Virus record (IMG/VR): IMGVR_UViG_3300037586_005524
Location: 1 to 64,000 of that record
Reading direction: 5' to 3' (one strand)
DNA from: a virus
DNA: 64,000 nucleotides
A program made the position numbers and the translations under genes. Each line of letters begins with the position of its first letter. Position 1 is the stretch's first letter. Positions 40,401-63,939 of the stretch are shown in pieces. Under the pieces are notes generated by a model. That model was given only the letters and a program-made list of their open reading frames with translations. It did no database searches and was not told where the DNA came from.

Positions 40401-41291
40401 TTATTTTTCCTCCAATTCGTTTTTAAGTGATTTATAACATCGATGTATACCATTTTGGATATCCATCTCTGCCTTCCATCCTAATTCTTTAAGGGGCAAT
40501 ACGTTGCCTTGTGTATACAATACATCGCCTTTTCTTTCTTCTATATAATCAAATGTTACATCTGGAAAATATTTTAGAACAATCTCTTTGATCTCGTTTA
40601 AAGAAATGTTACTGCCTGTCCCAATGTCAAAATGCCGTCCATTGAAATTTTCTTTGTGCTCCATTGCAAAAAGATTAGCCGATACAACATCGCCTAAATA
40701 TGCCATATCTCTTCTTTGTTCACCATTCCCTGTGATAAAAGGATTTTTACCTTTTCTTATATGTTCCATCCAATTAGCAATTGCCGTGGCATATGGCCCT
40801 TGAGCTTCTTGGTCTTCTGAATAAACATTAAAATATCGTAAACTAACTGTGTCTAAACCATATAAATCAGAATATAGTTTGCATTCCATTTCGGAAATTA
40901 ATTTTTGTAGCCCATATGGATTTGTGGGGCCGGATCCATTTCCATTTACAGATGAGGATCCGGAATAGATGACTCGTTTGACGCCAGCTTTTCTAGCAAA
41001 ATTAAGAATATAGGTTGTTGCTAATACATTATTTTCCATTGTCTCTACTGGCTTTTCTACACTGTATGCAACTCTTGGAATACAAGCTAGGTGAAAAATA
41101 TATTCTGGTTTGAAATCAAAATAATGTGGGTGGAATCTTTGGCTGCCGTCTGAATATTCTTTAAGATCTTTTACAATATTGCATCCTTCAAAAAGATCGA
41201 TTCCTTGTACTTCGTGTCCTAATTCTTGTAATTTTTTATATACGCGAGAGCCAATATATCCTCTATGCCCCGTCACCAAACATCTAGCCAT
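40401..41291 (-). CDS. NAD-dependent NDP-sugar epimerase/dehydratase
   Basis: VTGHRGYIG, FHLA, YGLQK (YxxxK), LRYFNVY. Confidence 0.92.
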   Translation of the reverse strand: MARCLVTGHRGYIGSRVYKKLQELGHEVQGIDLFEGCNIVKDLKEYSDGSQRFHPHYFDFKPEYIFHLACIPRVAYSVEKPVETMENNVLATTYILNFARKAGVKRVIYSGSSSVNGNGSGPTNPYGLQKLISEMECKLYSDLYGLDTVSLRYFNVYSEDQEAQGPYATAIANWMEHIRKGKNPFITGNGEQRRDMAYLGDVVSANLFAMEHKENFNGRHFDIGTGSNISLNEIKEIVLKYFPDVTFDYIEERKGDVLYTQGNVLPLKELGWKAEMDIQNGIHRCYKSLKNELEEK

Positions 41292-42138
41292 TATTTTTTT
41301 CCTTTGTTACTGCACCTTCGATATCTTTCCAATCATGCTCTTCTCTTACTTCAAGATTTTTTTGCCAAACGGACTTCATAACCTTTGGGTCAATGCCAAT
41401 TTCTTCAAATAATCCAATAAATGCATTTAAGTCTTTTGGAAAACATTTTCCTCCAAAACCAAGGGAGTCATCATGGCCAGGAACATCTAAATGAGAATTT
41501 CCAATTCTTCCATCAGAAACAAATCCATGCATTGTGTCCTCCCAGCTTACATTAAGTTCATCTGCTGCTTGCTTCATTTCATTCATAAAAGAAACTTTAG
41601 TAGCAAAAAAACAATTTGCCATATATTTTATAAACTGCGCAGTTGTTACATCTGTTTTAATAATTTTAATATACGGAAATCTACTCTTTATAAGCTTTTC
41701 TGCCTCATCAAGCAAATCTGGGCGGCCACCTAATATAATTCGAGAGGCATTAATAAAATCTAGCCGCGCGCTGCGCTCAGTTAAAAATTCTGGACTGTGT
41801 ATAATATTAAGATTAGGATATTTAAAAATCAAATCTTCCATGATGCCTGGTACAACGGTTGATTTAACTATAAAAATATTATCAGTTCTTTCATTTATTT
41901 CAGATATTTGATTGAAAGCAGAATACATAATATTTGTATCAATTTTTCCACCTAAAGCATCTTTCATCGGAGTTGGAACAGAAACAAAAATGAATTTTGA
42001 AGAGTTTATAACCTCACTCATTGAGTGTGTAGACTTCTCTGGATTTATATCATATATTTTAATATTTGCATGGAGAGAAAACCCATGTGCGATAGCAGAT
42101 CCTACAAAACCATTCCCTATTATTCCTATATTGTACAT
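41284..42138 (-). CDS. UDP-glucose/GDP-mannose 6-dehydrogenase family (short form)
   Basis: IIGNGFVG, VPTP, KSTVVPG, SPEFLTE, KYMAN, GFGGKCFPKD. Confidence 0.9.
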   Translation of the reverse strand: MYNIGIIGNGFVGSAIAHGFSLHANIKIYDINPEKSTHSMSEVINSSKFIFVSVPTPMKDALGGKIDTNIMYSAFNQISEINERTDNIFIVKSTVVPGIMEDLIFKYPNLNIIHSPEFLTERSARLDFINASRIILGGRPDLLDEAEKLIKSRFPYIKIIKTDVTTAQFIKYMANCFFATKVSFMNEMKQAADELNVSWEDTMHGFVSDGRIGNSHLDVPGHDDSLGFGGKCFPKDLNAFIGLFEEIGIDPKVMKSVWQKNLEVREEHDWKDIEGAVTKEKNNG

Positions 42139-42181
42139 TTATTCCTCGAAAACACTTACGCAGTTATTATTTTAGCACACT

Positions 42182-42913
42182 TTAGTTTATATGTTTAATA
42201 ATAAATTTCTCAAATAATTTAACTGATTGATTTAAATTTAAGCTTTCAGTGTCAATAATTAAATCTGGGTCAATTGGCTCATCAAATGAATCAGAAATTC
42301 CAGTAAAATTGTATACTTTACTTGGGTCTCCATCTGGAAGAAGGGCTCGCCTGTATAGGCCTTTGGTGTCTCTTCTTTTTAACTCTTCTAAGCTACACTT
42401 AACATAAACCAATTTTGATTTTGGAATTACTTTTCTAACATGCTGTCTTGTGGAATTATAAGGATTAATTGCAGACATAACGCAAACAACGTTATTTCGG
42501 CCTAACACCTTCCCCACAAACGATAGCCTTTTTATATTTGTTTCGCGATCTTTTTTAGAAAATCCTAAATCTTTACAAAGGTTGTTTCTGTATTCGTCGC
42601 CGTCGATGATCTCTATTTTAATGCCACGTTTTCTTATTTTTTTTTCAATAGATCTAGCTAGTGTTGTTTTGCCGGCGCCGCTCATACCTGTCATCTGAAT
42701 ATACAATCCTTTTGTTTTGCCCCACTTTACTTTATTCCAGACATGTTCGTGGGTCATAAATAAAACCAACATTAAAGCGTGATATATAATTGCAACAAAC
42801 CCGGTTTCTTTTAAAGAACCCGTAATAATATAAGCTACTAATGAAAGCACCAAAAAACCTAGAAGTTTCCAACTAAGTGCTTTGCTGAAACTTCTTCTTG
42901 TAGAATCAATCAA
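42182..42913 (-). CDS. cysC: adenylyl-sulfate (APS) kinase fused to an N-terminal DUF2061-like membrane domain
   Basis: TGMSGAGKTT, DGDEYR, LGFSKKDRETNIKR, RDTKGLY, FTGISDSFDEP; N-terminal RSFSKALSWK...HEHVWNKVKWG; TTG 42913 follows GGAGG. Confidence 0.92.
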   Translation of the reverse strand: MIDSTRRSFSKALSWKLLGFLVLSLVAYIITGSLKETGFVAIIYHALMLVLFMTHEHVWNKVKWGKTKGLYIQMTGMSGAGKTTLARSIEKKIRKRGIKIEIIDGDEYRNNLCKDLGFSKKDRETNIKRLSFVGKVLGRNNVVCVMSAINPYNSTRQHVRKVIPKSKLVYVKCSLEELKRRDTKGLYRRALLPDGDPSKVYNFTGISDSFDEPIDPDLIIDTESLNLNQSVKLFEKFIIKHIN

Positions 42914-43251
42914 AATAGATCCTCCATTGTTTTTTCCCAACTCGTAAAGTGATACGCGCGGTCATCGATATATATCCTAGCTGGCACTTTTGTGTTTGTC
43001 ACCTCGTCGAAGCAATCTTCTAGATCATATTTTTTAAGCCATTCATGAATAGGCTCTACAGGACGACTTGAAAATATAACCAATCTAAACCCTCTTTTTT
43101 TAAGTTCTCTTATGGACTCGGCCGCACCGTCGTGTGGCGGATCGTATGTATTATATAAACCCTGCCAGCCTTTAGAATATTTATGGATAACTCCATCAAA
43201 ATCTATAGCAATTGTATTGTTTTTTATCTTGTACGATATCTCTTTTGGCAT
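42910..43251 (-). CDS. small HAD-superfamily phosphatase-like protein
   Basis: IAIDFDGVIH, FSSR, K..YIDDRA. Confidence 0.75.
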   Translation of the reverse strand: MPKEISYKIKNNTIAIDFDGVIHKYSKGWQGLYNTYDPPHDGAAESIRELKKRGFRLVIFSSRPVEPIHEWLKKYDLEDCFDEVTNTKVPARIYIDDRAYHFTSWEKTMEDLF

Positions 43252-43257
43252 TATTCT

Positions 43258-44073
43258 TTATTCTCCTAATATTTCTTTCTCAACGAATGATTTCCAATCA
43301 CTATAAGTTGTCTTCTTACGTTTGAAATATCTATTATCTTTTTTTAGTGTGCCGCGGCCGAGATGCATAAAAATAATATTCCCTGAGTCGTCGACTGCGC
43401 GGTCTGTCGTAAGAAAAGTAAAAGAATTTGGTAATTCAAAATCAACATTATTATTAAAAGTGTTTTTACTACAAAAATACTTTAAGTTAAATTTATTACA
43501 ATATGCAGTATATGCATCACAAACGTCTATCTCGTCTTTAACATCTAAAGTTTTTCTTGTAGATTTTATTTCTTCTATTTTTTCTTTAGTTAATCCTTCT
43601 AACCTTGGATGGCCTTCTCTCAAGATTGGGAAACATGAAACTTTTTTAGCCAATTCTGTTGTCAACAACATACCTGATGAATGGACTGCATTTATTCTCG
43701 TATTATCTAAAAGCGTGCCCGCGATTGAATAGCCTTTTTGTATTTTCTCGTATAAATAATTCATCCAATTTTCATGACAAGCCGCAACGTCATTATGGCA
43801 CATAAAAACTAAATCCGACTGTACATGTTCCAAACCAACTTCAATCGCCTCTGCGTGTGCTGCAGCCGCAAGATAACAACATTTTTGTTGATTTGAAACC
43901 CAAACAACATTTTCCGATAAAGATAAAATTTCGTCTTTATAAGATTCATCCGAAGCATTTTCTACTACAATATATCTAAATTCAAAATTGTTTTTATATT
44001 TTTCAAAAGAACGTATACATAGAGATGTCAAGCCCTTAGAATGATAAGATGGTATAATAAAATCAATATTCAT
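43258..44073 (-). CDS. glycosyltransferase family 2-like
   Basis: FIIPSY, IVVENASD, FMCHND (DxD-like). Confidence 0.75.
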   Translation of the reverse strand: MNIDFIIPSYHSKGLTSLCIRSFEKYKNNFEFRYIVVENASDESYKDEILSLSENVVWVSNQQKCCYLAAAAHAEAIEVGLEHVQSDLVFMCHNDVAACHENWMNYLYEKIQKGYSIAGTLLDNTRINAVHSSGMLLTTELAKKVSCFPILREGHPRLEGLTKEKIEEIKSTRKTLDVKDEIDVCDAYTAYCNKFNLKYFCSKNTFNNNVDFELPNSFTFLTTDRAVDDSGNIIFMHLGRGTLKKDNRYFKRKKTTYSDWKSFVEKEILGE

Positions 44074-44083
44074 TTTTTACTCC

Positions 44084-45178
44084 CTACAAAAAGTTGATAT
44101 CTTTAGTTTCTTTTGGATGTGTTAAAAAGTCTATCAGTTTATTTGGTTCCGCCAGTTTACAGCACATTTGGCATTTTGTTTTATAATCCATGCTTCTAAC
44201 ATATTTAATTGCTTCTTTTCTTTGGTCTGATCCCCATATTTCTTTAAAAGAAGATTGATATATGTTTCCAAAAGATAATTTTTTATTCATGGGATGGTAG
44301 GTGCATACCTTAACTTCCCCAGTTGCATCTAAAATAGGTTCAAAAAAGTGCCCCTCACAGCTTCTAAAATTATATGCGGTGCCATTTTTAAGATCATGTC
44401 TTTTGTCGTCGCTTAAATTAATTTTAACATTTTTAGCGTTATTATCTAAATAATTCCACACATCTACATTAATCTCGGCTGTACCAGTTTTTTTATACGC
44501 TGTTTCGGCTTCTTTATAATATCGTGGAAGAATTGGCCTAAACTGTAAATAAGCAATATCATCTGTTTCGCCTACCCAATCTATCAATTGTTTTGCATGC
44601 TCAATCGTTATATTGGGACCTACGTTACAATTGATTCCAATTTTAGCTGGGTATTGTGCTAACTCTTCTACATTTCTTTTGATTACTTTTACACCATCAA
44701 CCTCTTTCCATTCTTTATATTTTTCAGCATCAAGAGTGTCTAAAGAAATGCGCATCCATTCAAAATTTTCGCCTATTAATTTATTATACTTTTTCTTATA
44801 AACGGCATTTGTCATTAAACCAAGTTGCAAACCCATTTCTTTAGCATACAATACAGCTTCTTCGAAGTGTGGGTAAAAAGTTGGCTCACCTTGCCCAGCA
44901 TATGTAATCGCTTTGCCGCCCATTTCAGCAAAATCCTTAAGATATCTTTTAAGAGCCTCTATTTCCAAGTGGGCACCAAATTTATTATCTCTTCCATTTT
45001 CCGTAATGCACCAGTAACAAGCCATATTACACTTGTTTGTTAAGCCAACTTCCATAAAAATGGGACAATCTGTGTCTCCAGTGGAAAGATACTGGTGTAA
45101 CTTATCAAAATGTAAAATTAATTTTGCTTGTGTGCCAAATGGGTTTGCGCCTGAAAATCTTACGTATTCATTACTCAT
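44084..45178 (-). CDS. radical SAM protein with SPASM/twitch domain
   Basis: CNMACYWC, GEPT, MTNA, RISLD, C...GEVKVC...FGNIYQSSFKEIW...CQMC. Confidence 0.92.
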   Translation of the reverse strand: MSNEYVRFSGANPFGTQAKLILHFDKLHQYLSTGDTDCPIFMEVGLTNKCNMACYWCITENGRDNKFGAHLEIEALKRYLKDFAEMGGKAITYAGQGEPTFYPHFEEAVLYAKEMGLQLGLMTNAVYKKKYNKLIGENFEWMRISLDTLDAEKYKEWKEVDGVKVIKRNVEELAQYPAKIGINCNVGPNITIEHAKQLIDWVGETDDIAYLQFRPILPRYYKEAETAYKKTGTAEINVDVWNYLDNNAKNVKINLSDDKRHDLKNGTAYNFRSCEGHFFEPILDATGEVKVCTYHPMNKKLSFGNIYQSSFKEIWGSDQRKEAIKYVRSMDYKTKCQMCCKLAEPNKLIDFLTHPKETKDINFL

Positions 45179-45180
45179 CT

Positions 45181-46020
45181 TTAATATTCCTTTTGATTTT
45201 TAATTAACATTTCTATTCCATCCCATATGCTATATTTTGGCTTAAACCCCAAATTATTTAATTTTGCAACGTCCAAATACATATCTTTAACTTGTACTGT
45301 TTTATGAAAATGTGGTGGTTCTACAGAAATAAAATTACTCTTTGAGTTTGTTCGTTGTTTAACATAATTCATCATATCTATAAACCTATGTGGTGTCCCG
45401 CTTCCAATATTAATAATTTCATTTAAAGGAGCTTCTTTCACAACAAGATTTATCGCACGACATACATCTTCTACATGCATAAAATCTCTTATATCTTCAC
45501 CAGAATTATATAAATTAATGTCTTTACTATTAACAACCTCTCCTATTAAATATTGTAATGCGTTTCTTTTTTTAGAAACTTTTTTATCTTCTATTCCATA
45601 TATATTACAAAGTCTTAAAATTCTATAATTAATATCAAATGTTTCGCAGTAAGATATTAATAATTGTTCAGCCGTCCTTTTAGTAATAGAGTAAAATCCT
45701 TTAGGGTTACAACAAGATTCTTCTTTAGCAGGAAGATCATCGGTCTTGCCATACACAAACCATGAACTAATAAAATTAAAGACTATATTTTCTTTATCTC
45801 TACATTTTTCCAGCACGCTAACTAATAAATTTAAATTCGTATTAATATCCAAGTGTGGGTTCTCAAATACATTATAATTATTATTAGTACTTATAAAATA
45901 TATAATATCCTTTGTTTCTGAAGAGAGTTGAAAACGTGGGACAGTCAAAGACTCAGTAGCATATATATTAGAGTACACGCTGCCTATAAATCCTGTGGCG
46001 CCAAAAATTGCTATCTTCAT
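45181..46020 (-). CDS. NAD-dependent epimerase/dehydratase
   Basis: GATGFIG, ISSWFVYG, YSITK, RLCNIYG, RDFMHVED. Confidence 0.9.
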   Translation of the reverse strand: MKIAIFGATGFIGSVYSNIYATESLTVPRFQLSSETKDIIYFISTNNNYNVFENPHLDINTNLNLLVSVLEKCRDKENIVFNFISSWFVYGKTDDLPAKEESCCNPKGFYSITKRTAEQLLISYCETFDINYRILRLCNIYGIEDKKVSKKRNALQYLIGEVVNSKDINLYNSGEDIRDFMHVEDVCRAINLVVKEAPLNEIINIGSGTPHRFIDMMNYVKQRTNSKSNFISVEPPHFHKTVQVKDMYLDVAKLNNLGFKPKYSIWDGIEMLIKNQKEY

Positions 46021-46676
46021 GTTTCTTTCCTTTTATTACAAGACAATAAAATATATAATTGTGGTGGTGCGTTAGCCAATGTACCAGCTTTGATGTGGAC
46101 AATCTCATCACTGGTACCGCCCCATAATGCCTTCATATTATATGATAAATCAAAATATTTTTTAATATATTTAATTGGCAAAATTTCTGGTATTTCTTCG
46201 TAAGCGGCTTTTTTAACGTCAAAATATTCATATTGTCTTACCCTTGATTCGAATAAGCTATATTCTTCATCTTTTAAAAAGGAGTCATCCCAAACACCAG
46301 ACCAAAGATAATTATCATCTTCGTAGGCATATTCATGTTCTCCATCTTTAACCCATCCTATTTTATAATTTTCAAACCTCCAATGATCGCCTAAACCCCA
46401 ATCAACATATAATTTTCCTCCATCATTAAGACTATTATAACAACGCTTTATAAAATCTTTTGGGTTTTTTGCAAAATAAGCAGTACGAGTACAGATAATA
46501 GTATCGTATTTCTTTTTTAGCTCCCAACTATCATTTATATTCCAGTTATTTAACTGTAGGTCATATAAATCCCCATCAAACCAATTATTATCAACAAAGC
46601 CCAATAAAGCAGCTTCTCCTTGTGGCTTAATATGCTCTTTATAAAAGTCATATATATATGGATCACTTCTTCCCAT
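46017..46676 (-). CDS. divergent class I SAM methyltransferase-like protein
   Basis: YDTIIC...PKDFIKRCYNSLNDGGKLYVD; weak motif I; paralog of 52912..53529. Confidence 0.5.
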   Translation of the reverse strand: MGRSDPYIYDFYKEHIKPQGEAALLGFVDNNWFDGDLYDLQLNNWNINDSWELKKKYDTIICTRTAYFAKNPKDFIKRCYNSLNDGGKLYVDWGLGDHWRFENYKIGWVKDGEHEYAYEDDNYLWSGVWDDSFLKDEEYSLFESRVRQYEYFDVKKAAYEEIPEILPIKYIKKYFDLSYNMKALWGGTSDEIVHIKAGTLANAPPQLYILLSCNKRKET

Positions 46677-46685
46677 GATAACCTC

Positions 46686-47348
46686 TCAAAATTCGTAATT
46701 AAACAAGTTTAAATCTTTTTCGTATAACTCTTCAATGATCTTTCTTGTATCGTCAGTGTAATATTTTTTATATTTATCCCTTTTCGGAGTTATATTAGTT
46801 TTATTTATAGACCTGGGAAGGGGCAAATTTAGCTGCTCAAATATATTTTGTAAATCAATGTCAAAATTTTGTAGTTTGCCAACATAATCAGGAATAAGTT
46901 TATTATTTTTATTATATGCATAAAGATATTGAGGACATATATGATTTGGTTGTGTTCGACCCAGCCATTTATAATATTCTTTTGTATTAACAGCTTTTTT
47001 AACTTTTTGTACAAAATCGTCAAACGCTATATTAGACTCAATACCATATGTGTCTTGTGAATAGTGATAAACAGAAACAAGCCTATCAAATGGATTTCTA
47101 ACAAATGTAAACTTCCAGGCATTTGAAAAATCTTTTTCATTAAAAGTTTTCATGTTATAGTGCTGCTCTAATGTATAATGATGTGGCTTACAATGATATC
47201 CATATTTTTGGGCTCGCTCTCTTTGGTCGATATCATAGTCCCTACTTGACATAACTGCATCTAAATTATGCCAATCTTCATTTGGCAAATAACTATGAAC
47301 TGTCGATCCTGCACATTTAGGGTTATGTAAAAAAATATATTTTCTCAT
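46686..47348 (-). CDS. sulfotransferase (Sulfotransfer_2 family)
   Basis: FLHNPKCAGST (5'-PSB), FVRNPFDRLVSVY (3'-PB), LYEKDLNLFNY. Confidence 0.9.
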   Translation of the reverse strand: MRKYIFLHNPKCAGSTVHSYLPNEDWHNLDAVMSSRDYDIDQRERAQKYGYHCKPHHYTLEQHYNMKTFNEKDFSNAWKFTFVRNPFDRLVSVYHYSQDTYGIESNIAFDDFVQKVKKAVNTKEYYKWLGRTQPNHICPQYLYAYNKNNKLIPDYVGKLQNFDIDLQNIFEQLNLPLPRSINKTNITPKRDKYKKYYTDDTRKIIEELYEKDLNLFNYEF

Positions 47349-48316
47349 GGGTTTACACAATTTTGTATTTTTGATTTTTCAAAAAAATCTTTAATTGTTC
47401 TCCATCCTTTAACTTTTAGTTCTCTAAACGACTCATCTGTAAAAAAGGCCGCATGTGGTGTTATACAAAACCTGCTTTTAATCCAAGGCTCCTTTTTTCT
47501 CCAAGCGCTAATAAGAGGATGTTCTTCGGGAGGAGGTTCTATTTCTAAAACATCCATACCAGCAGCTTTAATTTTATTGTTTTTCAAAGCCCAATAAAGA
47601 TCGTCTAAGCTTATTATCTCACCTCTTGCTGTATTAATTAAGATACAATTTTCTTTCATTTGAGAAAATTGATCTTTGCCTATTAGTTCTTTTGTTTCTT
47701 CTGTTAAAGGAGTATGTATGGAAATGATATCATTATTTGAAAGAAGCTCATCAAAATCTACTTTTTCTACCCCCAATGATTTATCTATTCCAGCAGCAAC
47801 ATAAGGATCATAATATTGTATATTTAAACCAAAAGCTTTTGCTCTTAAAGCAACTGCAATGCCAATGCGCCCTAAGCCAATTAAGCCAATATTTTTGCCA
47901 CGCAACCTAAAAAGACTTTTTGGCAAAAATGGATCCCAAATATCGCTTTCATTATAAGAATTAATATTCCTCACAAGATTCAATAATAAGGCCATCGTAT
48001 GATCTGCAACGACATCCGTGCCATAATCTGGTATATTAGAAACTACAATATTTTCTTTTTTCGCCCGCAATAAATCAATATTGTCATATCCAACGCCCAT
48101 ACGAACTATTATAGAACATTTTTCCATAGTGTCAAAAGATATGTTGCTTATAGGAATTTCATGCCACACAACAAGTGCGTCTGCATCTTTTATATAGGGC
48201 TGGATATCTTCTTCTGTTTCTGCATTTAAAAATATAACAGTATAAGGATCATCAAGTACTGCTATCTCCTCTTTTGTCCTTTCTGTAATAAAATCAGTAA
48301 CTACGATTTTTTTCAT
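47345..48316 (-). CDS. D-isomer-specific 2-hydroxyacid dehydrogenase (SerA/CtBP-like)
   Basis: RMGVGYDNID, GLGRIG, HTPLTEET, INTARG, DVLEIEP, TPHAAF. Confidence 0.92.
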   Translation of the reverse strand: MKKIVVTDFITERTKEEIAVLDDPYTVIFLNAETEEDIQPYIKDADALVVWHEIPISNISFDTMEKCSIIVRMGVGYDNIDLLRAKKENIVVSNIPDYGTDVVADHTMALLLNLVRNINSYNESDIWDPFLPKSLFRLRGKNIGLIGLGRIGIAVALRAKAFGLNIQYYDPYVAAGIDKSLGVEKVDFDELLSNNDIISIHTPLTEETKELIGKDQFSQMKENCILINTARGEIISLDDLYWALKNNKIKAAGMDVLEIEPPPEEHPLISAWRKKEPWIKSRFCITPHAAFFTDESFRELKVKGWRTIKDFFEKSKIQNCVNP

Positions 48317-49089: not shown

Positions 49090-49091
49090 TT

Positions 49092-49832: not shown

Positions 49833-50221
49833 TTATTTAATAATTCCTCTTTGAAAATAGATTCCCAATTTTTGAATCTTATTGCTTTATCATCAATATA
49901 ACATACAGCATTTGGTTTTTCAAACGATACATCTTCAATATATTCGTCCATATTGTTTTCAGCTAACCATTCCCAAATTAATTCTTTTCCAGTTTTACCA
50001 TTTATAAGAGGGCGTTTTGGATTTGCTTTACAACTATAAACAATCAGTGTGTAATCTTGAGAAAGCTTTTTTAACGCTTCGTCCGAACCTTTTATTGGAG
50101 GATCATATACAGTACCATCATGAAATCCTAAAGAACTTCTATGTATGACTCCATCAAAATCAATTGCTAATATTTTTTCTTCTTGTTCTGTAATGAGCTT
50201 TAAAAATTGTTCTTTATCCAT
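49829..50221 (-). CDS. small HAD-superfamily phosphatase-like protein, paralog of 42910..43251
   Basis: LAIDFDGVIH, YDPP, KP...YIDDKA. Confidence 0.75.
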   Translation of the reverse strand: MDKEQFLKLITEQEEKILAIDFDGVIHRSSLGFHDGTVYDPPIKGSDEALKKLSQDYTLIVYSCKANPKRPLINGKTGKELIWEWLAENNMDEYIEDVSFEKPNAVCYIDDKAIRFKNWESIFKEELLNK

Positions 50222-52201: not shown

Positions 52202-52214
52202 TGGTCTCCCAAAT

Positions 52215-53529: not shown

Positions 53530-53557
53530 AAATTGATTCTCCCGTTTTTATAATATA

Positions 53558-54466: not shown

Positions 54467-54476
54467 TTGTCATTCT

Positions 54477-56227: not shown

Positions 56228-56228
56228 C

Positions 56229-56729
56229 TTAATTTACCTCCCAATATTTCTGAGAGACAATAGAATGGTGATACCTGTAGTCATCTGCTAGCGCTTCTTT
56301 GTATGTAAGATTGCTCAAAAATATTATATTTGTATTTTCTTCCAAACTCATCCAACCATTCGCACGATAAGGAGGGATTACCAAAACTTTAGGTGAACGA
56401 TAACTCAATACATAACTTGAAATATAGCTTGGATTTGCTTTTAAAAATTCTTTTATAGCCAGCTCATCGTTATTATCAACTAAATCCTCCGGTATATCAA
56501 CGCTTAAAAATTTTGCTGCCCCCGTAAGAACAGTATATATCTTCCATTCTTTTTTATGATAATGCACACCACGTATCACGCCCCTGCCATAATCTCCAAC
56601 AAAACACGCTCGATTGATTAAGTCAGGATCTATATCATCTGTAAGAGGAGATAAAAAACCTCTTTGGTCATTTAAAACTAAAGTATTTATTAATTTTGTT
56701 TCTTTGAGGTCTTTGTTTATTTTATACAT
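56229..56729 (-). CDS. cupin NDP-keto-sugar epimerase/isomerase (RmlC/FdtA-like)
   Basis: DQRGFL, IRGVHYH, LVIPPYRANGW. Confidence 0.8.
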   Translation of the reverse strand: MYKINKDLKETKLINTLVLNDQRGFLSPLTDDIDPDLINRACFVGDYGRGVIRGVHYHKKEWKIYTVLTGAAKFLSVDIPEDLVDNNDELAIKEFLKANPSYISSYVLSYRSPKVLVIPPYRANGWMSLEENTNIIFLSNLTYKEALADDYRYHHSIVSQKYWEVN

Positions 56730-57828
56730 AAAAATCTTTTATGACCTCACAAACATAATTAATTTGTTCTTCGCTAATATTAACAAAAGAAGGCAAACAA
56801 ATTCCATTATCATAGGACTTTTCTGCCACTGGAAAGTGCTCTCTATTATAACGAGGATCTTTCTTCCAATATTCAAAGGCCGGCTGTAAGTGCAACGGAT
56901 AAAAAAACATTCTTGGTTCTACATCGTTTTCTCGCATATGTTGCATTAAGTCTTCAGCTTCATCTTTTTTAGTTTTCAAAATAACTCTAAAAGGAATGTA
57001 AGGGCATACCTCTTCTGGAGGTTGATAAATATCAACATGCTTAAACTCAGAAAAAGCTTCTGTATACTTTTTATGAATAAAATTTTTCTTTTCTACTAGG
57101 GTATCAAACTTTTTCATTTGAGCTAAACCAATTGCGCATTGAATATCAGTCATTCTGAAATTATAGCCCACTTGAGGATGAACAAAAGTTCCTCTTCCTC
57201 TTCTTCCTTGATTTCTAAGATACAAAAGCTTCTCATAGACCTCTTCATTGTTTGTGGTTACAAAGCCGCCTTCGGCAGTTGTAAGGGTTTTATCTGCGAA
57301 AAAAGAAAAACAACCAACATCTCCAAAACTGCCGCAACCTTTGCCTTTCCATTTTATACCAAGCGCTTGGGCTGCATCTTCAATTACCAGCAAATTATGT
57401 TTTCTTGCATATGCCATTACTTGATCCATATTAGAAGTAAATCCAAAAAGATGAACTGGCATGATTGCTTTTGTTTTTTCTGTTAAAACGCGGTCGCAAT
57501 CTTCTACGTTAATTTGTAAATTTTCACAAACATCAACAAATACAGGCTTTGCGCCTAAAAATTCGACAGAAGTGGCGGAAGCAAAAAATGTAACATCCGG
57601 CACAATAACTTCGTCGCCCGGGCCTATTCCTAGTGCTTTTAAGCCCAAAATCAATGCCAGCGTGCCATTTGGTGCATAAACCCCATATTTCACGCCAATT
57701 TTTTCACACAACTTTTGATTAAATTCTTTAGCTAATGGACCTTCTGTTATCCAATTTGTTTCAAAACATTGTTTTATTGCTTCATATTCTTCCATCCCAA
57801 CGAATGGCATAAACTGTGGTACTTTCAT
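56722..57828 (-). CDS. DegT/DnrJ/EryC1/StrS sugar aminotransferase (perosamine synthase-like)
   Basis: NGTLAL, GPGDEVIVP, IEDAAQALG, FSFFADKTLTTAEGG, GYNFRMTDIQ. Confidence 0.95.
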   Translation of the reverse strand: MKVPQFMPFVGMEEYEAIKQCFETNWITEGPLAKEFNQKLCEKIGVKYGVYAPNGTLALILGLKALGIGPGDEVIVPDVTFFASATSVEFLGAKPVFVDVCENLQINVEDCDRVLTEKTKAIMPVHLFGFTSNMDQVMAYARKHNLLVIEDAAQALGIKWKGKGCGSFGDVGCFSFFADKTLTTAEGGFVTTNNEEVYEKLLYLRNQGRRGRGTFVHPQVGYNFRMTDIQCAIGLAQMKKFDTLVEKKNFIHKKYTEAFSEFKHVDIYQPPEEVCPYIPFRVILKTKKDEAEDLMQHMRENDVEPRMFFYPLHLQPAFEYWKKDPRYNREHFPVAEKSYDNGICLPSFVNISEEQINYVCEVIKDFYV

Positions 57829-59444
57829 TTTTTCCTCACTAATAAATTTACATCATAAAAATACAGATAGTCAATGTTTGTTCTCAAAAAACAATCTAGT
57901 GCATGTTCTGCTGTTTCACAAATTGGTTCCCTATCATTAAAGCTTGTATTCAAAACAATTGGGACTCCAGATTTATTATACCATTTTTTAATAAAATTAT
58001 AATACCATTTATTATCATTTTCTGTGACAGTCTGCAATCTAGCAGTTCCATTTAAATGCACAACTGCTGGTACTTTATTTTTTGCCTCTTCTTTGAACTC
58101 CAAAACAAAGCTCATATATGGACTATTTTTATCTTTTGTGAACCAATTTTTGACTTCTTCGCGAAGAATAGATGGTGCGAAAGGCCTAAACCACTGTCTA
58201 TGTTTTACTTTTTCATTAATGAGGTCCTTCATATTAGGACTTCTAGGATCTGCCAAAATGCTTCTATTCCCCAAAGCTCTTCGTCCGGACTCTGAGCCTC
58301 CTCCAAAAACTGCAACAATTTTTTGTTCATCCAGCAAATCAACTACTTTATCGTCGGTACACTTCTCATATAAAATATTATCCTGTTTTTTTAAGGCTTC
58401 TTCGACATTGTTATATCCAAAACCAAGATAAGGCGTGAAGTTGTCCTTCCACTCAATTCGTGGATTGTCCAGCACTTGATGCCAAAGATATTGGGCTGCA
58501 CCAATTGTTAGACCGCCATCATGAGGAGTTGGTGTTACATATATACTTTTTATTTGTGGGAACCAATCAAACATTTTTCCTACAGCTACCGAATTTAAGC
58601 TTACGCCACCAGAAAGACAAATATTTTCAATGCCCTCTATCTGATTTAAAAGGCTTTCAAACATTTCTCTAATATAATCTTCTGTGGCTCTTTGAAGACC
58701 TGCGGCTAAATCAAATTTAGCTTGTTCGCTTTCTTTTGCTATTTCTGCCCATTTATTTAAGTAAGGGTGTGCAGGGTCATTTCCAGTGTTTGCCCCACGA
58801 GGTTGATCTGCGGGCTTATGAGTTGCTGCAGCAAGGTCGAAAGTAAGCATTCTAAAGAAATCGTTTTTATACTTTTCTGGGTTTCCCATCGCGGCCATGG
58901 CCATGACTGTTCCGGCTTGATGTCCTCGGGGCCAACCAGATTGAAGATTAAAAATATAGCGCGTGCACCTTGTCCAAACTCCTCCAATATTTACCAAGTT
59001 AATTGGATAAGTGTGCACATGCTCTATTTTGTTTCCCTTCCCTTTCCACACCGTAAAAGCTGTTGCGAAATTATCTTTTGACTCAAAGCCTCCGCCATCG
59101 ATGGTTACAATTAAGGCGTTGTCTAGGTTACTAGAAAAAAATGCATTGGCTGCATGGCATTGATGGTGCCCATAAACATGTAAATGGCCGCCATTTTTCT
59201 CAGCAGTCTCCATTATTTTTTGATATGATTCTTCATAGCTTTTTAGTTTTTTTACAGAATAACAAGTCGCAAAATGTTGAATCTCGTTATAATTTTCATA
59301 TTCATCAAATAAAAATTGTGCACTATCTCCTGCAGGCTCTTTTTCTCTAATATATCTTTCATATTCTGCATGTACAAGAGGTTTTCCATCTTCCAATACG
59401 CAAAATGAACAATCATGCCCAGACCATATACCAGCTATTTTCAT
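57825..59444 (-). CDS. O-carbamoyltransferase (NodU/CmcH/TobZ family)
   Basis: GHDCS, EYERYIREK, HHQCHAA, IDGGG, SGGVSLN, GRRALGNRSILADP, RPFAPS, LNTSFN. Confidence 0.95.
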   Translation of the reverse strand: MKIAGIWSGHDCSFCVLEDGKPLVHAEYERYIREKEPAGDSAQFLFDEYENYNEIQHFATCYSVKKLKSYEESYQKIMETAEKNGGHLHVYGHHQCHAANAFFSSNLDNALIVTIDGGGFESKDNFATAFTVWKGKGNKIEHVHTYPINLVNIGGVWTRCTRYIFNLQSGWPRGHQAGTVMAMAAMGNPEKYKNDFFRMLTFDLAAATHKPADQPRGANTGNDPAHPYLNKWAEIAKESEQAKFDLAAGLQRATEDYIREMFESLLNQIEGIENICLSGGVSLNSVAVGKMFDWFPQIKSIYVTPTPHDGGLTIGAAQYLWHQVLDNPRIEWKDNFTPYLGFGYNNVEEALKKQDNILYEKCTDDKVVDLLDEQKIVAVFGGGSESGRRALGNRSILADPRSPNMKDLINEKVKHRQWFRPFAPSILREEVKNWFTKDKNSPYMSFVLEFKEEAKNKVPAVVHLNGTARLQTVTENDNKWYYNFIKKWYNKSGVPIVLNTSFNDREPICETAEHALDCFLRTNIDYLYFYDVNLLVRKK

Positions 59445-59459
59445 TATTACACCTTTTCC

Positions 59460-60392
59460 TTAAGATATTATTTCATAAGATACATTTTCTGTTTCAATAG
59501 GCCAATTAATTGGGTTCTTCTTCCAGTTGCCGCACTCATCAATTGGTAACTCCCAATCGCCATTTGCGATTGCTATTTCTTCAATAGAAAATGGTCTATG
59601 ATCGTGAAATACAAAATCTTTTTTATCAACCCATTGATAATATAAATTGTCTTTTAGTGCTTCCCAATATAATCCATATCTAACATTTCCTCTCACGCGG
59701 CCTTGAGTCCCTCGCGGGTCTGTAAATATGGCAACAGAAGCTGGAAACCAGGGAACAAAAACTTTTTTACGACCATGAAAATGTGCGTTCCCCATTGTGG
59801 AAAAAAGATCTTCAGCATTGATGTTTCCATCAACTTTCCAACCTCCCATTGTATCCAAACATTCTTTATTATAAAAACAATCTCCTGCTCCTGGAATAAC
59901 TTTATGTTTTTGTATTGCAAAAATAGAATTACTCATTTTATGTTTTTCGTACTGTTCATTTTCTAAACGAACTTTACGTTGGGCGTCTAGCATTACAACA
60001 AAAACATCATCCCGAGAATCTAAGAAGTCAACATATTCATTTAACCAGCCTTTTCTGATAAATTGTGTATCTCCTTGTAACGGGACAATATATTCGCCAC
60101 TTGCAGTTTGATGAAACAAATTTAGTGCTGCTGAGAACTCATCGATAACGTCTTTTATTTTTCCAATATCTTTTTTTTCTTTAGATCTGGTTTCTTCTTG
60201 ATTAATAATTGTCCAGCCGCGATCTTTTAATGTTTGCAAATATTCTTGTGTACCCTTTTCTTTACTATTGTCGTCAATGCAGATAAATTCTAATTCATCA
60301 TCATAATCTTTTACTGACTCCATTAAAGATTCGGCACAGCTTTTTAAATAAAAAAGTCTGTTATAGTTAACGATCCCAAAAGAAATTTTCAT
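59460..60392 (-). CDS. glycosyltransferase family 2-like
   Basis: IVNYNR, ICIDDNS, GEYIVPLQGD. Confidence 0.78.
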   Translation of the reverse strand: MKISFGIVNYNRLFYLKSCAESLMESVKDYDDELEFICIDDNSKEKGTQEYLQTLKDRGWTIINQEETRSKEKKDIGKIKDVIDEFSAALNLFHQTASGEYIVPLQGDTQFIRKGWLNEYVDFLDSRDDVFVVMLDAQRKVRLENEQYEKHKMSNSIFAIQKHKVIPGAGDCFYNKECLDTMGGWKVDGNINAEDLFSTMGNAHFHGRKKVFVPWFPASVAIFTDPRGTQGRVRGNVRYGLYWEALKDNLYYQWVDKKDFVFHDHRPFSIEEIAIANGDWELPIDECGNWKKNPINWPIETENVSYEIIS

Positions 60393-60393
60393 A

Positions 60394-61191
60394 TCACTCC
60401 TCTCTCATCCCCTCAAATACCGTTGTTTTATACTTTGAATTTTCTTCTAATAACATTTCAAAAAATCCTACATCTAGTTTTAAATTTTTTACCATGGCTG
60501 CTATAGTTCTTGTATCTTTTGGCAAACACGGCCCACCAAAACCTCTAAAATCTTCATTGCAGTTCAAATAAACATCATTAATATGATTTCTTTGTGTTAT
60601 TGTGTTTTTTATTTTAGTATAATCGGCGCCGGCGGCCTTGCATACTTCATAAAAGCTATTTGCAAAAGTTACCAAAGTTGCATTATAAATATTATTGAAA
60701 TATTTAATAAATTCTGCTTCTAAAGGAGATAGTTGTACAAACTTTTTTGGATAATATCCATGTACATTTTTTAACATTTCATATGTCGAGAAATTATCAG
60801 TGCCTATAACACACAAATCATGATTATCAATAAAATCTGCAACTGCACATCTTTCTCTAAGAAATTCCGGAATAAAGCATAATTCTAAGTTTGGATACGT
60901 TTTTGAAAATTTATTTATAGTTCCAGGAGCAACTGTAGATTTTATAGCAACAATTCCTTCATAATTATATTCATTTAAATCATCTACTACCATTTCAACA
61001 ATGTCAGTGTCGCACTCTCCATTTTCTTTAGATGGAGTTGGAACACAAACAAAACAGATATCAGTATCAAGCACATCTCTAATAGAAGAATCATATTTTA
61101 TATCATGCACTCTCATATTATGACCTAATTTTTTTAATCCTTCATGGACGGCGGCGCCAACTATGCCGGCGCCAATAATACCAATTTTCAT
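60394..61191 (-). CDS. UDP-glucose/GDP-mannose 6-dehydrogenase family (short form), second copy
   Basis: IIGAGIVG, VPTP, KSTVAPG, PEFLRE, GFGGPCLPKD; start MKIG after GGAG. Confidence 0.9.
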   Translation of the reverse strand: MKIGIIGAGIVGAAVHEGLKKLGHNMRVHDIKYDSSIRDVLDTDICFVCVPTPSKENGECDTDIVEMVVDDLNEYNYEGIVAIKSTVAPGTINKFSKTYPNLELCFIPEFLRERCAVADFIDNHDLCVIGTDNFSTYEMLKNVHGYYPKKFVQLSPLEAEFIKYFNNIYNATLVTFANSFYEVCKAAGADYTKIKNTITQRNHINDVYLNCNEDFRGFGGPCLPKDTRTIAAMVKNLKLDVGFFEMLLEENSKYKTTVFEGMREE

Positions 61192-61192
61192 A

Positions 61193-62155
61193 TTATTTTT
61201 CTCCAGAAATTTTTGTAACAATAAAAGTATAAGGACTTGGATGTGAATAAACTATTTTAAGACCTATACTCTGAACAAAATAAGAAATTTCACTAGGATC
61301 ATAAGTCCATATATATGGAGTTGTACAATCTTCTAAATGTAGTGCTTCTTCAATTTTTTTTATAGAATATTTTTTACATAATTTTTTAAGGCCGCTTATC
61401 ATATTCGAGTATTTTGTGTCTTTAACCAAAAGCATATCTTTTAAGCTTTTTTGTTTTTTTTCATAATGCCATAATTTTCCTATAATTTTTAAAAACTCAT
61501 AAGTGTTTTCTAAACTTTCATTTAAAAATATTTCTCTTATATCCCAAGTGATTTGTGGGACATCGTTATCAGTAAAAAAATTAAAAATTAAAAACCCATT
61601 TGGTTTCAGTAAGTGTGACAAATCTTTTAATGTTTTTTTATAATCGCGTTGATGGTGTAGCGCCATATGATGAATAATCACATCAAATTGTTCTGAATTA
61701 AATACATTTGTAATCTCTTCTATATCTGTCTGCAAAAAACAAAAATTCTCTAAAGGGTTTTTTAAATTATTTAAATTAATAATATTATTAAAAAAAATAT
61801 TTTCTTCTTTTCTATAAGGAATTCTTTTATTTTTAAGGGCCTCGTGGGTCATTTTTGGACCAACATAAGAGCCATCTGCTGCGCACACAAATTTGGCGCC
61901 TAATTCAGCCGCAACTATAGAAAATCTACCAAGGCCCGAGCATGCATCTAAAACTACTTTATCTTTAAAATTTATATTTCCTCCGGAAAACCGCAAAAAC
62001 TTTTGAATTCGAGATTTTCCCCAAGAGTCATCAAGGAAATCTCTTGATTGCAGTTCCCACATTCTATCATACAAATCATTATTTTTAGCCTTATTGTTTA
62101 CATAAACGCCTTTACAATTTTTTAAAGAATCAAAATCTTTAAATATATTAATCAT
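61193..62155 (-). CDS. class I SAM methyltransferase
   Basis: VLDACSGLG, FDVIIHHMALHH, LLKPNG. Confidence 0.85.
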   Translation of the reverse strand: MINIFKDFDSLKNCKGVYVNNKAKNNDLYDRMWELQSRDFLDDSWGKSRIQKFLRFSGGNINFKDKVVLDACSGLGRFSIVAAELGAKFVCAADGSYVGPKMTHEALKNKRIPYRKEENIFFNNIINLNNLKNPLENFCFLQTDIEEITNVFNSEQFDVIIHHMALHHQRDYKKTLKDLSHLLKPNGFLIFNFFTDNDVPQITWDIREIFLNESLENTYEFLKIIGKLWHYEKKQKSLKDMLLVKDTKYSNMISGLKKLCKKYSIKKIEEALHLEDCTTPYIWTYDPSEISYFVQSIGLKIVYSHPSPYTFIVTKISGEK

Positions 62156-63077
62156 TTTGTTCTCCTATAGTTTTTGTGAACAAGCCTGCGTACTCTTCAA
62201 CGAGATTGTGCATGTCATATCTTTTAACGTTATTATAGCAAATATTTATATCATTATTAATTGGAAAATACATATTTTTAGGTATATCTACCACACAATT
62301 TTTGTTTAAAACCGCAGTAGCCATGCCCACATCCCTCGATATTATAGGGATTTTCATTGCAGAGGCTTCTAAAATTGCTTGTGGACCTCCCTCTACTCTC
62401 GATGCAACTATATATAAATCACAACAAGCATACATATCTTTTAATGTTTCTAGTGGCGCCATCTCTATAAAGTGAAAATTAATATTTTCTTCTTCGAGGC
62501 GATTAATTATATATTGTCTTCTCCAACCGCCTAACAACACAAATAAATTGTCTTTATTAATTTTTTTAAGAGTCTCAACGAATAAATCTGGGCCTTTTTC
62601 GAGTTTTGGGCTTATTAAGTCTGAGCCTTCTGTATCCCTCTGAAAGCTTCCAACAACATAAGCATCAGCAGGAATTTTTAATTCTTCTCTAGCTTTATAT
62701 TTGTCAGTCGGGCTCCATATTTTTGAATTATACCAATATCCAATAACCTCTACTGGTTTTTTTGTCATTTTAGAAATAAAATCCTTGGTTTTTTGACAAG
62801 GAGTGTGATAACAATCTACATATTTGTCTCTTACAAGAAACTCACGAAGAGAGTCTTTACTAAACTTTTCAGGCACAACGTGGTGAATAGTAACTACAAC
62901 TTTCTTTTCAATAAGAAATTTTGCTGGTATATTCCTCCAAAGCCACGGACTAATAATCCACAACAAATTTGCATTGTTTAAATTATCTGTATGATATTGT
63001 GGTTTAAGTTCTCGCCATTCCTTGACAATTCTATCAAGAATCCAATTTTCTTTTGGTGCTAGTGAAAAAATCTTCAT
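62148..63077 (-). CDS. glycosyltransferase family 4 (GT-B)
   Basis: GSFQRD, EKGPD, DLYIVASRVEGGPQAILEA. Confidence 0.88.
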   Translation of the reverse strand: MKIFSLAPKENWILDRIVKEWRELKPQYHTDNLNNANLLWIISPWLWRNIPAKFLIEKKVVVTIHHVVPEKFSKDSLREFLVRDKYVDCYHTPCQKTKDFISKMTKKPVEVIGYWYNSKIWSPTDKYKAREELKIPADAYVVGSFQRDTEGSDLISPKLEKGPDLFVETLKKINKDNLFVLLGGWRRQYIINRLEEENINFHFIEMAPLETLKDMYACCDLYIVASRVEGGPQAILEASAMKIPIISRDVGMATAVLNKNCVVDIPKNMYFPINNDINICYNNVKRYDMHNLVEEYAGLFTKTIGEQND

Positions 63078-63939
63078 ATTTTTTTGCTACTTTCCTCATA
63101 TCATAATCGCTATCATGATTATTTTTTATTTTTTTTGTAAAGTCCATTGGTGGTGGTTCATATAATTTTACGGGCTCGAAGTCCCACTCGTCTTCTTTAA
63201 TAATAATGGCGTTTGGACCTGCTATTTCTTTTGTTCCACCTGCAGAAGAACATATGATTTGACATCCACTTGCACGAGCATCAACAACAACATTTGGACA
63301 GTGATCAAGCCACGCTAAATGTATGAAATATTTAGATCTTTTATATAAAGAAATAAGTTGTAAAATGTTTGTGTTGCCAATATAAAAGATTCTATCATCT
63401 TTTAAAATATCTTCGTTCTTTTCGCCGGCGATTACTAAACAATCTTTTTCAGAAGAGTGTTCTAAAAAATAATTCATATTCTCCGACAATCTTTTGTGTG
63501 GGCGCCAAGATGAAGCACAGCACCATACATTTTCATATTTATCTAATCGCGAATTAAAAGAGTGTGGCACTTTATCAATGTATTCAATATCAGCGCCATT
63601 GTGTATAACAATGGAATTTTTATGTTCTCCAAAATATTTTGTTATAAGCTGCTTATTAAAATTTGATTGAAAAATGGCGCCATCAGCACCGTCATAAGTC
63701 CTTTTTATGTTTGTATTCCGTATTCTGTAATTTTGCGCTGTGTTGAAATATATGCCGTCTAATCTTTGAAATAATGGTATATTATCAAAAGTACTTCTAT
63801 AAGATTCTATAAAACATAATCTTGCATCCGGGGCTTTATTTATATCAAAAGTCGTATCTAAGTATTTCATCAATTTTGAAGCAAAGTGGTTTGGCCCAGA
63901 TGTGCTTCGCAAATCAACGTTTTCTAAGTGTATATTCAT
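63034..63939 (-). CDS. glycosyltransferase family 4 (GT-B)
   Basis: QRLDG, IFQS, IHNG, WRPHKR, DHCPNVVVDARASG; related to 53558..54466. Confidence 0.88.
   Translation of the reverse strand: MNIHLENVDLRSTSGPNHFASKLMKYLDTTFDINKAPDARLCFIESYRSTFDNIPLFQRLDGIYFNTAQNYRIRNTNIKRTYDGADGAIFQSNFNKQLITKYFGEHKNSIVIHNGADIEYIDKVPHSFNSRLDKYENVWCCASSWRPHKRLSENMNYFLEHSSEKDCLVIAGEKNEDILKDDRIFYIGNTNILQLISLYKRSKYFIHLAWLDHCPNVVVDARASGCQIICSSAGGTKEIAGPNAIIIKEDEWDFEPVKLYEPPPMDFTKKIKNNHDSDYDMRKVAKKYEDFFTSTKRKLDS

Follow-up and report, generated by a model that had tools for sequence, protein, structure and literature searches.

The DNA analysed here (the window) comprises bases 1–64000 of an 83,220-bp viral contig, IMG/VR record IMGVR_UViG_3300037586_005524, for which the CheckV completeness is 46%. 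The minus strand carries almost every gene of this contig, including a cluster in which sugar-nucleotide synthesis genes and several glycosyltransferases (GTs) share one co-oriented block. Between positions 40401 and 63939, 28 minus-strand open reading frames (ORFs) were counted, compared with the ∼27 tightly packed genes reported in a first-pass annotation of the window, and the continuation past the right edge that it had anticipated was observed in the remainder of the contig. There, the cluster extends for a further 4.2 kb and includes three more GT genes before ordinary phage genes begin. The full glycan cluster (40401–68115, contig positions) spans 27.7 kb and contains 31 minus-strand genes, with overlaps at 18 of the 30 junctions and a widest gap of 43 bp. 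A megablast search of the cluster against 50,697 phage records gave no match. What is new at this locus is its layout: two GT genes of family GT4 at the far end of the cluster are conserved anchors, and a variable island extends from them up to the gene for a gp55-like late sigma factor (231 aa; 38928–39623, minus strand; phrog_234).

The enzyme classes listed in the first-pass annotation were each recovered with Pfam, NCBIfam, PHROGs and Atlas. All of the cluster genes described below lie on the minus strand. Nearest to the sigma gene, a GalE/TviC-like nucleoside diphosphate (NDP)-sugar epimerase of the short-chain dehydrogenase/reductase (SDR) type (296 aa; 40401–41291) and a short nucleotide-sugar dehydrogenase (284 aa; 41284–42138) were assigned by Pfam, with NCBIfam scores below the equivalog cut-offs. 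This pair is a candidate uronic-acid module, and homologues of its genes adjoin the o21-sigma block in three relatives (G003, G037 and G023). A second short nucleotide-sugar dehydrogenase (275 aa; 60394–61221; Pfam, NCBIfam) lies towards the other end of the island. In both dehydrogenases, the C-terminal UDP-binding domain is missing and the N-terminal Rossmann region is incomplete. Given that homologues of this short form occur in ∼30 related loci, it appears to be conserved rather than decayed.

The next gene encodes an adenosine 5′-phosphosulfate (APS) kinase (252 aa; 42182–42940; Pfam) with an N-terminal DUF2061 two-helix membrane anchor, which is visible as two hydrophobic segments. It scores 162 bits against NCBIfam model TIGR00455, for which the cut-off is 138.7, and this domain model was the sole curated cut-off reached. 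None of the sugar enzymes attained an NCBIfam equivalog cut-off, and the exact sugar products named here are therefore predictions. The APS kinase would supply 3′-phosphoadenosine 5′-phosphosulfate (PAPS) for sulfation. Since no ATP sulfurylase was found on the contig, its APS would need to be supplied by the host. A small HAD-like hydrolase (113 aa; within 42182–43251; Pfam) directly follows. The succeeding genes, assigned by Pfam and NCBIfam, encode a GT2 protein (271 aa; 43258–44073), a radical S-adenosylmethionine (SAM)/SPASM enzyme (364 aa; 44084–45178) for which a PDB sequence search returned generic relatives only, an SDR epimerase/dehydratase (279 aa; 45181–46020), a weak methyltransferase match (219 aa; 46017–46676) and a Sulfotransfer_2 sulfotransferase (224 aa; 46686–47360).

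A candidate module for a cytidine monophosphate (CMP)-activated acidic sugar and its transferase occupies 47345–52201. Here, Pfam matches, and NCBIfam matches below cut-off, identified a D-2-hydroxyacid/phosphoglycerate dehydrogenase-like protein (323 aa), an HpcH/HpaI class II aldolase (258 aa), a PseF/KdsB-like CTP_transf_3 cytidylyltransferase (246 aa), an SIS isomerase-like protein (130 aa) and a GAPDH/erythrose-4-phosphate dehydrogenase-like protein (326 aa). One protein of this module matches PHROG 1238. The putative transferase, a TagF-like GT-B protein (336 aa; 51191–52201), has no Pfam match and no PDB sequence relative. Its assignment comes from Atlas comparisons with Glyphos_transf clusters (0.96 by features, TM 0.80 by structure), by which it resembles cytidine diphosphate-alcohol and CMP-sugar transferases. 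Further along lie a DUF2334 protein that is a putative deacetylase (234 aa; 52215–52919; Pfam), an unassigned 205-aa protein (within 52215–54466), for which no PDB sequence relative was found, and a GT4 protein (302 aa; 53558–54466; Pfam).

A predicted amino-deoxy-sugar module (54477–59444; Pfam, NCBIfam) comprises a 4,6-dehydratase-like SDR (328 aa; 54477–55463), a SAM methyltransferase (255 aa; 55460–56227), an RmlC/FdtA-like cupin (166 aa; 56229–56729), a LegC/PseC-like DegT aminotransferase (368 aa; 56722–57828) and a NodU/CmcH-type carbamoyltransferase (539 aa; 57825–59444). On either side of the second short dehydrogenase are a GT2 protein (310 aa; 59460–60392) and a SAM methyltransferase (320 aa; 61193–62155), and two GT4 proteins follow (309 aa, 62148–63077; 301 aa, 63034–63939), all assigned by Pfam and NCBIfam. 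Beyond these, a fusion of a GT1-like N-terminal half and a GT2 domain (538 aa; contig 63936–65552; Pfam, Atlas) has its 3′ end at 63936–64000 of the window. The cluster is completed by the two anchors, an inner GT4 (428 aa; contig 65549–66835) and an outer GT4 (427 aa; contig 66832–68115), both identified by Pfam and alignment. In total, eight Pfam-supported GT proteins and the TagF-like GT-B protein were identified, and none has a transmembrane segment.

To place this gene content in context, relatives of the phage were collected with the sigma protein, which finds more than 560 related IMG/VR contigs. Three complete relatives of 181–190 kb were examined in full: G003 and G033, each with direct terminal repeats, and G037. 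When all contig proteins were compared by tblastn with 89 related loci, homologues of the sigma block were present in 73–82 of them, and most genes between the sigma block and the anchor block were present in only 0–8. The block formed by the two anchors and the adjoining PD-(D/E)XK nuclease gene (contig 68125–68913, next to the cluster end at 68115) was recovered from every fetched locus that extends to this side of the island (7–9 of the 89 loci). The outer anchor was recovered from 37 of 50 related records and from each of the three complete relatives, at 57–81% identity, and is as conserved as the sigma factor. In 31 relatives, between 2.2 and 27.4 kb separate it from the sigma gene (median of 16.3 kb), with the present phage at the top of this range (27.2 kb). 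In the complete genome G033, the two GT4 genes lie directly beside the sigma block with no island between them. The island between the anchors and the sigma gene measures from ∼0 to 25 kb, and its sugar genes differ from phage to phage.

Parts of the island are shared with other members of the group. The amino-sugar/carbamoyl block (54477–59444) recurs in loci L084, L085 and L086 at 50–84% identity, and the epimerase/dehydrogenase/APS-kinase block recurs in G037. Since its blocks recur in different relatives, the island is a mosaic whose modules can be exchanged. When 103 island ORFs of four relatives were classified with Pfam, the kind of content was again that of sugar-nucleotide enzymes and GTs, although the members differed: the set includes 15 epimerase/dehydratases, 5 DegT aminotransferases and two NeuB proteins, together with GT1, GT2, RmlC, nucleotide-sugar dehydrogenases and radical SAM enzymes. 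The anchor GT family itself accounts for more than 7,354 metagenomic protein clusters, which points to an abundant marine lineage. Among the matches listed, the longest contigs reach the size of a phage genome.

Both anchors are probably active enzymes, since alignments (A1 and A2) revealed that the EX7E motif is invariant in both, as are many residues of the N-terminal, acceptor-side domain. A GtfA/GtfB-type pair with one inactive partner was ruled out by the retention of EX7E in both proteins. Matches of the anchors to PF20706 (“GT4-conflict”) overlap those of the generic GT4 model and were treated as uninformative. AlphaFold2 models of the two proteins (pLDDT 85 and 87) have the same best fold match in the PDB, the uncharacterized GT4 protein B736L of chlorovirus NY-2A. 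For the inner anchor, the E-value of the next match is poorer by four orders of magnitude. Given that the acceptor of B736L is itself not known (PMC9614988) and that B736L is also a top HHpred match of the T4 α-glucosyltransferase (PMC6024577), fold similarity does not identify the acceptor of the anchors. In three relatives the inner anchor is extended to 660–700 aa (L044:1407–3398; L110:7371–9467, from G037; L087:2657–4768). The extension in L044 is a GT2 domain, and a fusion of this kind points to consecutive steps on one substrate. The ∼280-aa C-terminal extension in G037 (L110), to which that of L087 is homologous, gave no match in Pfam, GT2 models included.

Among isolates, the anchor GT and the sigma factor together find only immuto, Mel-JY01 and one 484-kb uncultured phage, and the anchor GT also matches Rhodothermus phage RM378. 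The gene order PD-(D/E)XK nuclease, GT, GT, followed by further GTs, aminotransferases, methyltransferases and epimerases, is kept in immuto (vB_FspM_immuto), which infects Flavobacterium (host Flavobacterium sp. LMO8), and in Mel-JY01, which infects Microcystis. Bacteroidota, Cyanobacteria and Rhodothermus have unrelated envelopes and no common surface-glycan acceptor. The conservation of the acceptor domains of the anchors across these host phyla is easier to explain by an acceptor encoded by the phage than by host lipopolysaccharide (LPS) or capsule.

The first-pass annotation had found no Wzx or Wzy protein, ABC exporter or initiating transferase in the window, and had noted that such genes could lie outside it. 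This absence extends to the whole contig, the three complete relatives and 1.75 Mb of sequence from related loci, and annotation of the flanking sequence revealed nothing export-related just outside the window. A hydropathy scan of the 83,220-bp contig detected no polytopic membrane protein, the sole membrane feature in the cluster being the two-helix anchor of the APS kinase. Models for Wzx (PF01943 Polysacc_synt), Wzy (PF04932 Wzy_C), ABC exporters (PF01061 ABC2_membrane) and initiating transferases (PF02397 Bac_transf and the WecA-type PF00953 Glycos_transf_4) had no match in the contig or the three complete relatives, and the controls for these searches were positive. The related loci, which include ∼85 islands or island ends, contain 1,756 ORFs, and none of these ORFs is Wzx/Wzy-like. 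The sole ORF among them with at least four hydrophobic segments encodes a 1939-aa structural protein. Hydropathy likewise indicated no Gtr/Oac-type membrane protein (GtrA, GtrB, GtrC or a membrane acyltransferase) in the island or the complete relatives. Absence across so many relatives is far stronger evidence than absence from one window.

In G003, G033 and G037, the only ORFs with at least three hydrophobic segments encode a PAP2-family phosphatase of 206–218 aa, a tape-measure-like protein, a giant structural protein and small holin-like proteins. The phosphatase (∼210 aa, five transmembrane helices) is present in all three genomes, far from the island (G003 contig 140409–141029, L100:409–1029, minus strand; G033, 161783–162412; G037, 87180–87836). 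The PAP2 family includes undecaprenyl-pyrophosphate and phosphatidate phosphatases, and to judge from its family the substrate of this protein could be undecaprenyl pyrophosphate, phosphatidate or lipid A.

Candidate acceptor proteins were sought among the structural proteins by scoring counts of the tripeptide [ST][GAS]S against composition-preserving shuffles. Four distal structural proteins (1702–3273, 3292–4461, 13285–22479 and 22484–24124, all on the minus strand) are enriched, with z = 5–8, and hold most of the occurrences on the contig. In all six GT-pair genomes that were scored, z exceeds 4 in three to six distal structural proteins. The corresponding proteins of G003, G037 and G033, the last of which has the anchors only, are likewise enriched. 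The 1053-aa “tail spike” of immuto has 60 occurrences (z = 9.9), and in Mel-JY01 six post-baseplate proteins are enriched, five of them at z > 4 with at least 5 occurrences. In the marine T4-like phages S-RIM32, Syn1 and XG4, which have no GT pair, no z above 2.2 was obtained despite the similar serine content of their giant structural proteins. This distribution fits a role for [ST][GAS]S as a sequon on candidate acceptor proteins. Two further observations concern the giant proteins of the contig. The 3064-aa protein at 13285–22479 has 41 of the sites and a Laminin_G_3 (ConA-like lectin) domain identified by Pfam. The other giant structural protein (3040 aa; 26426–35548) has no [ST][GAS]S site despite its similar size.

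A chimeric join to a bacterial O-antigen locus, which the first-pass annotation had named as an outcome that would overturn its interpretation, was ruled out by several results. Although the GC content of the island is 32.5% compared with 36–37% in the flanks, the medians at third codon positions match (0.24 and 0.25–0.27, respectively). The junction between core and island is bridged without mismatch by contigs from independent metagenome runs (X10, 39664–41169; X17, 40271–41179), and an island occupies this site in at least 31 related phage contigs. Near-identical copies of positions 38900–46900 occur in a minimum of 16 marine metagenome runs, which come from many studies, and in four of these runs 36000–55999 is fully covered by contigs.

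Contigs from several independent marine runs stop at 41576–41617 and at ∼47074, with identical unrelated continuations, which suggests that co-occurring phage variants diverge at these points inside the island. Over the late sigma gene (38668–39334), the summed contig depth is up to ∼20–30-fold higher (in run X4, 707 compared with ∼20–36 in neighbouring bins). This peak fits a situation in which many related phages share the gene at ≥95% identity while their islands differ.

The surroundings of the cluster are those of a phage genome. Downstream and on the same strand are gp25/gp6-like baseplate wedge genes (24124–25935 and 25960–26352). The first-pass annotation had placed the cluster directly upstream of the late sigma factor and baseplate genes and co-oriented with them. 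Strand and order stand, but three small core ORFs (99, 89 and 99 aa; PHROG, Pfam) intervene; together with the sigma gene they occupy 38928–40453 on the minus strand. One of the three has a Zn ribbon and one a single transmembrane helix. The argument drawn from this co-orientation is weak, because in the cultured relatives the module adjoins replication or lysis genes and not the baseplate, and a position upstream of the late sigma gene does not by itself make a gene late. On the other side, the nuclease gene is followed by a metallopeptidase-like gene, PIN-PhoH, a trypsin-like peptidase and a tubulin/FtsZ homologue. The last of these, a GTPase of the tubulin/FtsZ family, is encoded at contig 74622–75686, and the genomes of the relatives measure only ∼180–190 kb.

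A promoter scan of the cluster region showed that sigma-70-like sites are no commoner than in shuffled sequence. One match at 12 of 12 positions (contig 70395–70367; L002:7147–7175, minus strand) overlaps the Shine-Dalgarno sequence and start codon of a 98-aa gene, which lies upstream of the nuclease-GT module, and is kept in the closest relative only. The 2-hydroxyacid dehydrogenase gene contains a second 12/12 match (48135–48108, minus strand). The search for terminator-like sites on the minus strand gave none in 36000–55999 and a single, doubtful one in the rest of the cluster (contig ∼63676–63690).

To account for these observations, we infer the acceptor, the order of the steps, the identities of the sugars and the biological role as follows. 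A distant T4-like marine myophage would use the locus as a self-contained system for glycosylation in the cytoplasm, with a fixed part and a variable part. In the fixed part, the two GT4 anchors (contig 65549–68115) would put the first sugars on an acceptor encoded by the phage, most likely Ser or Thr residues in the [ST][GAS]S-rich proteins of the distal baseplate and fibres. The variable 25-kb island would then provide activated unusual sugars, together with approximately seven further GTs and tailoring enzymes for elongation and decoration of the glycan. The predicted sugars comprise uronic acids, an amino-deoxy sugar with methyl and carbamoyl groups and an acidic sugar activated with CMP, with PAPS available for sulfation. 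Given that phages differ in the content of the island, the tail of each strain would bear a glycan coat of its own, much as giant viruses decorate their fibrils.

That the island directs cytoplasmic O-glycosylation of phage tail and baseplate proteins is the reading that we favour, and we would give it about an even chance. A more specific version is put forward tentatively, at somewhat short of even: the product would be a strain-specific glycan of the tail fibres and outer baseplate, a phage “O-antigen”, begun by two initiating GTs on a serine tripeptide sequon, built by an island that is swapped between co-occurring strains, and sulfated, carbamoylated and furnished with a new CMP-activated acidic sugar made with the HpcH aldolase. 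Several points weigh against virion glycosylation. Glycosylation is here a prediction from genes, and this contig is only 46% complete. After B736L, the next matches of the anchors in PDB sequence and fold searches, BshA, MshA and PimB′, act on small molecules or lipids, and the protein O-GTs GtfA and SdgB appear only far down the fold list. In immuto and Mel-JY01 the module adjoins lysis or replication genes and not structural genes. The [ST][GAS]S motif was defined post hoc, and its six positives belong to one clade and amount to approximately one evolutionary contrast, such that it could be a lineage-specific structural repeat. The APS kinase has a membrane anchor, and the PAP2 phosphatase of the complete relatives is the only hint of a lipid-linked step. 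The GTs of bacterial O-antigen clusters are also soluble, so soluble GTs are compatible with a lipid-linked route through the initiating transferase, flippase and ligase of the host. The last three points would suit an island that remodels the host envelope, for example against superinfection, by means of a lipid-linked (undecaprenyl-phosphate) or lipid A/core-linked glycan that would be built or modified at the inner membrane face and exported by the initiating transferase, flippase, polymerase or ligase of the host. The phosphatase could in that case use undecaprenyl pyrophosphate, the gene families match those found in O-antigen and capsule loci, and hypervariability is also expected of a surface antigen. 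Envelope remodelling, the main rival explanation, is moreover the standard published reading of similar gene sets in marine T4-like phages (PMC7029224; PMC12801897). We nevertheless regard it as rather unlikely here, with a flippase, polymerase, ABC exporter, initiating transferase or Gtr-type membrane protein found in none of ∼85 islands and none of three complete genomes. To our knowledge, every phage system known to modify O-antigen has one or more membrane proteins. The anchors, including their acceptor-side domains, are also conserved in phages of Bacteroidota, Cyanobacteria and Rhodothermus, and the Wzx, Wzy and ligase of the host would have to accept a different foreign glycan from each phage strain.

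The similarity of the anchors to BshA, MshA and PimB′, their closest characterized relatives, would be accommodated more directly if they glycosylated a membrane lipid or a small molecule (diacylglycerol released by the PAP2 phosphatase to give a phosphate-sparing glycolipid, or an acceptor of the thiol or inositol type), with the island tailoring the product, possibly into a soluble glycoside for host takeover. The presence of the phosphatase in the relatives, a PhoH gene five genes upstream of the anchors, and the resemblance of the carbamoyl, methyl, amino and radical SAM set to natural-product glycoside pathways are all in keeping with this. Such a function is improbable, however, as it offers no reason for a hypervariable island of 0–25 kb with at least 8 GTs and leaves the co-occurrence of the motif unexplained, and in G003 more than 45 kb separate the PAP2 gene and the island. 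The remaining candidate acceptor is DNA. Here, the glycan would be placed on hypermodified bases of the phage genome as protection against restriction, in the manner of the T-even phages on hydroxymethyl-pyrimidines. The anchors always adjoin a PD-(D/E)XK nuclease gene and in Mel-JY01 lie within a replication and nucleotide-metabolism module, and B736L, their best fold match, has the HHpred link to the T4 α-glucosyltransferase noted above (PMC6024577). By contrast, neither the α- nor the β-glucosyltransferase of T4 was among the top fold matches of the anchors, and 31 genes, sulfation, carbamoylation and approximately nine GTs far exceed any known DNA glycan. Models for the ThyA-family hydroxymethylase (PF00303) and the C5-methyltransferase (PF00145) had no match in the contig and the three complete relatives, nor did that for TET/JBP (PF12851) in a search made without a positive control. 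Given that no route to hydroxymethyl-pyrimidines was found in these genomes, nor any known route to a glycosyl-accepting base, DNA is disfavoured as the acceptor and we consider this explanation highly improbable. The first-pass annotation had proposed virion proteins or phage DNA; the virion half of that proposal gains indirect support from the GT pair conserved across host phyla and from the serine motif, whereas the DNA half loses by these absences.

Glycosylation of virion proteins, the favoured explanation, has established precedents among viruses. Clade-specific glycogene clusters of 9–21 genes in the genus Mimivirus provide bacterial-type sugars for the virion fibrils, and that of Cotonvirus includes sulfate metabolism (PMC9614988). 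Shared with the present locus are virus-encoded, host-independent rare sugars (amino-dideoxy and methylated), several GTs and a content that varies between relatives, and the link to giant viruses extends to the chlorovirus NY-2A origin of the best fold match of both anchors. The Mimivirus clusters coat proteinaceous surface fibres, whereas the function of the phage island is read from its genes. The phage system also differs in belonging to a tailed phage of a bacterium, in its operon-like array, and in showing strain-level variation at one site bounded by two conserved GTs. Mycobacteriophage GTs are reported to O-glycosylate the virion proteins of the phage in the cytoplasm without export (Freeman et al. 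2023, summarized in PMC12619734), in systems described as having only a few GTs (PMC11256854). The modified sites there are the C termini of capsid and tail-tube subunits, and the hosts are actinobacterial. The candidate acceptors here are distal baseplate and fibre proteins, and the few GTs described there compare with 31 genes, including approximately nine GTs, sugar pathways and tailoring enzymes.

In gene content, the closest parallels are with other marine T4-like phages. LPS-like sets in P-SSM2, S-SCSM2R and the host-recognition cluster of pelagimyophages have been read as modifying the host O-chain or DNA (PMC7029224; PMC12801897), and a complement of 13 GTs was called possibly the highest number in a marine phage (PMC12801897). 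Many GTs, NDP-sugar epimerases and dehydratases, KDO-type genes and hypervariable regions near tail genes are common to those clusters and to this one. The present lineage is a different one, and an anchoring GT pair, a lineage-wide absence of export genes and an acceptor motif are not described in PMC12801897 or PMC7029224. S-SCSM2R encodes a homologue of the PgaA exporter, in contrast to the island, which has no export genes. Bacterial O-antigen and capsule loci share with the island its sugar-nucleotide pathways, GTs, tailoring enzymes, hypervariability at a fixed site and a GC content slightly below that of the flanks. An initiating transferase, flippase, polymerase, chain-length regulator and ABC transporter, however, are absent here and in the relatives examined. 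The GtfA/GtfB O-GlcNAc transferase pair of Gram-positive serine-rich-repeat adhesins is likewise formed of two adjacent GT4-type proteins that start cytoplasmic O-glycosylation of serine-rich surface proteins, which further GTs extend, as would be the case here. GtfB is non-catalytic and GtfA has a DUF1975 insertion. By contrast, both anchors keep EX7E, no DUF1975 was detected in them by Pfam, and GtfA ranked 24th–37th in the fold search, such that the resemblance is functional only. Taken by analogy, the locus would combine the gene content of the LPS-like sets of marine T4-like phages and a logic closest to that of virion-glycosylating viruses with a layout of fixed anchors and variable island.

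For twenty years, LPS-like clusters have been catalogued in marine phages and routinely read as host-surface modification without evidence. With no export genes in the lineage, anchors conserved across unrelated hosts, a candidate sequon and two cultured relatives (immuto and Mel-JY01), the question is now testable. The island is in any case a source of divergent carbohydrate enzymes. If the strain-specific tail glycan proposed above is real, the system would exceed in complexity every glycosylation system known from phages and would be the first for a phage with a Gram-negative or marine host. Glycosylation of the virions would affect the annotation of auxiliary “cell-wall” genes in viromes, and the strain-specific sugar coats would bear on host recognition, particle adsorption, grazing and decay.

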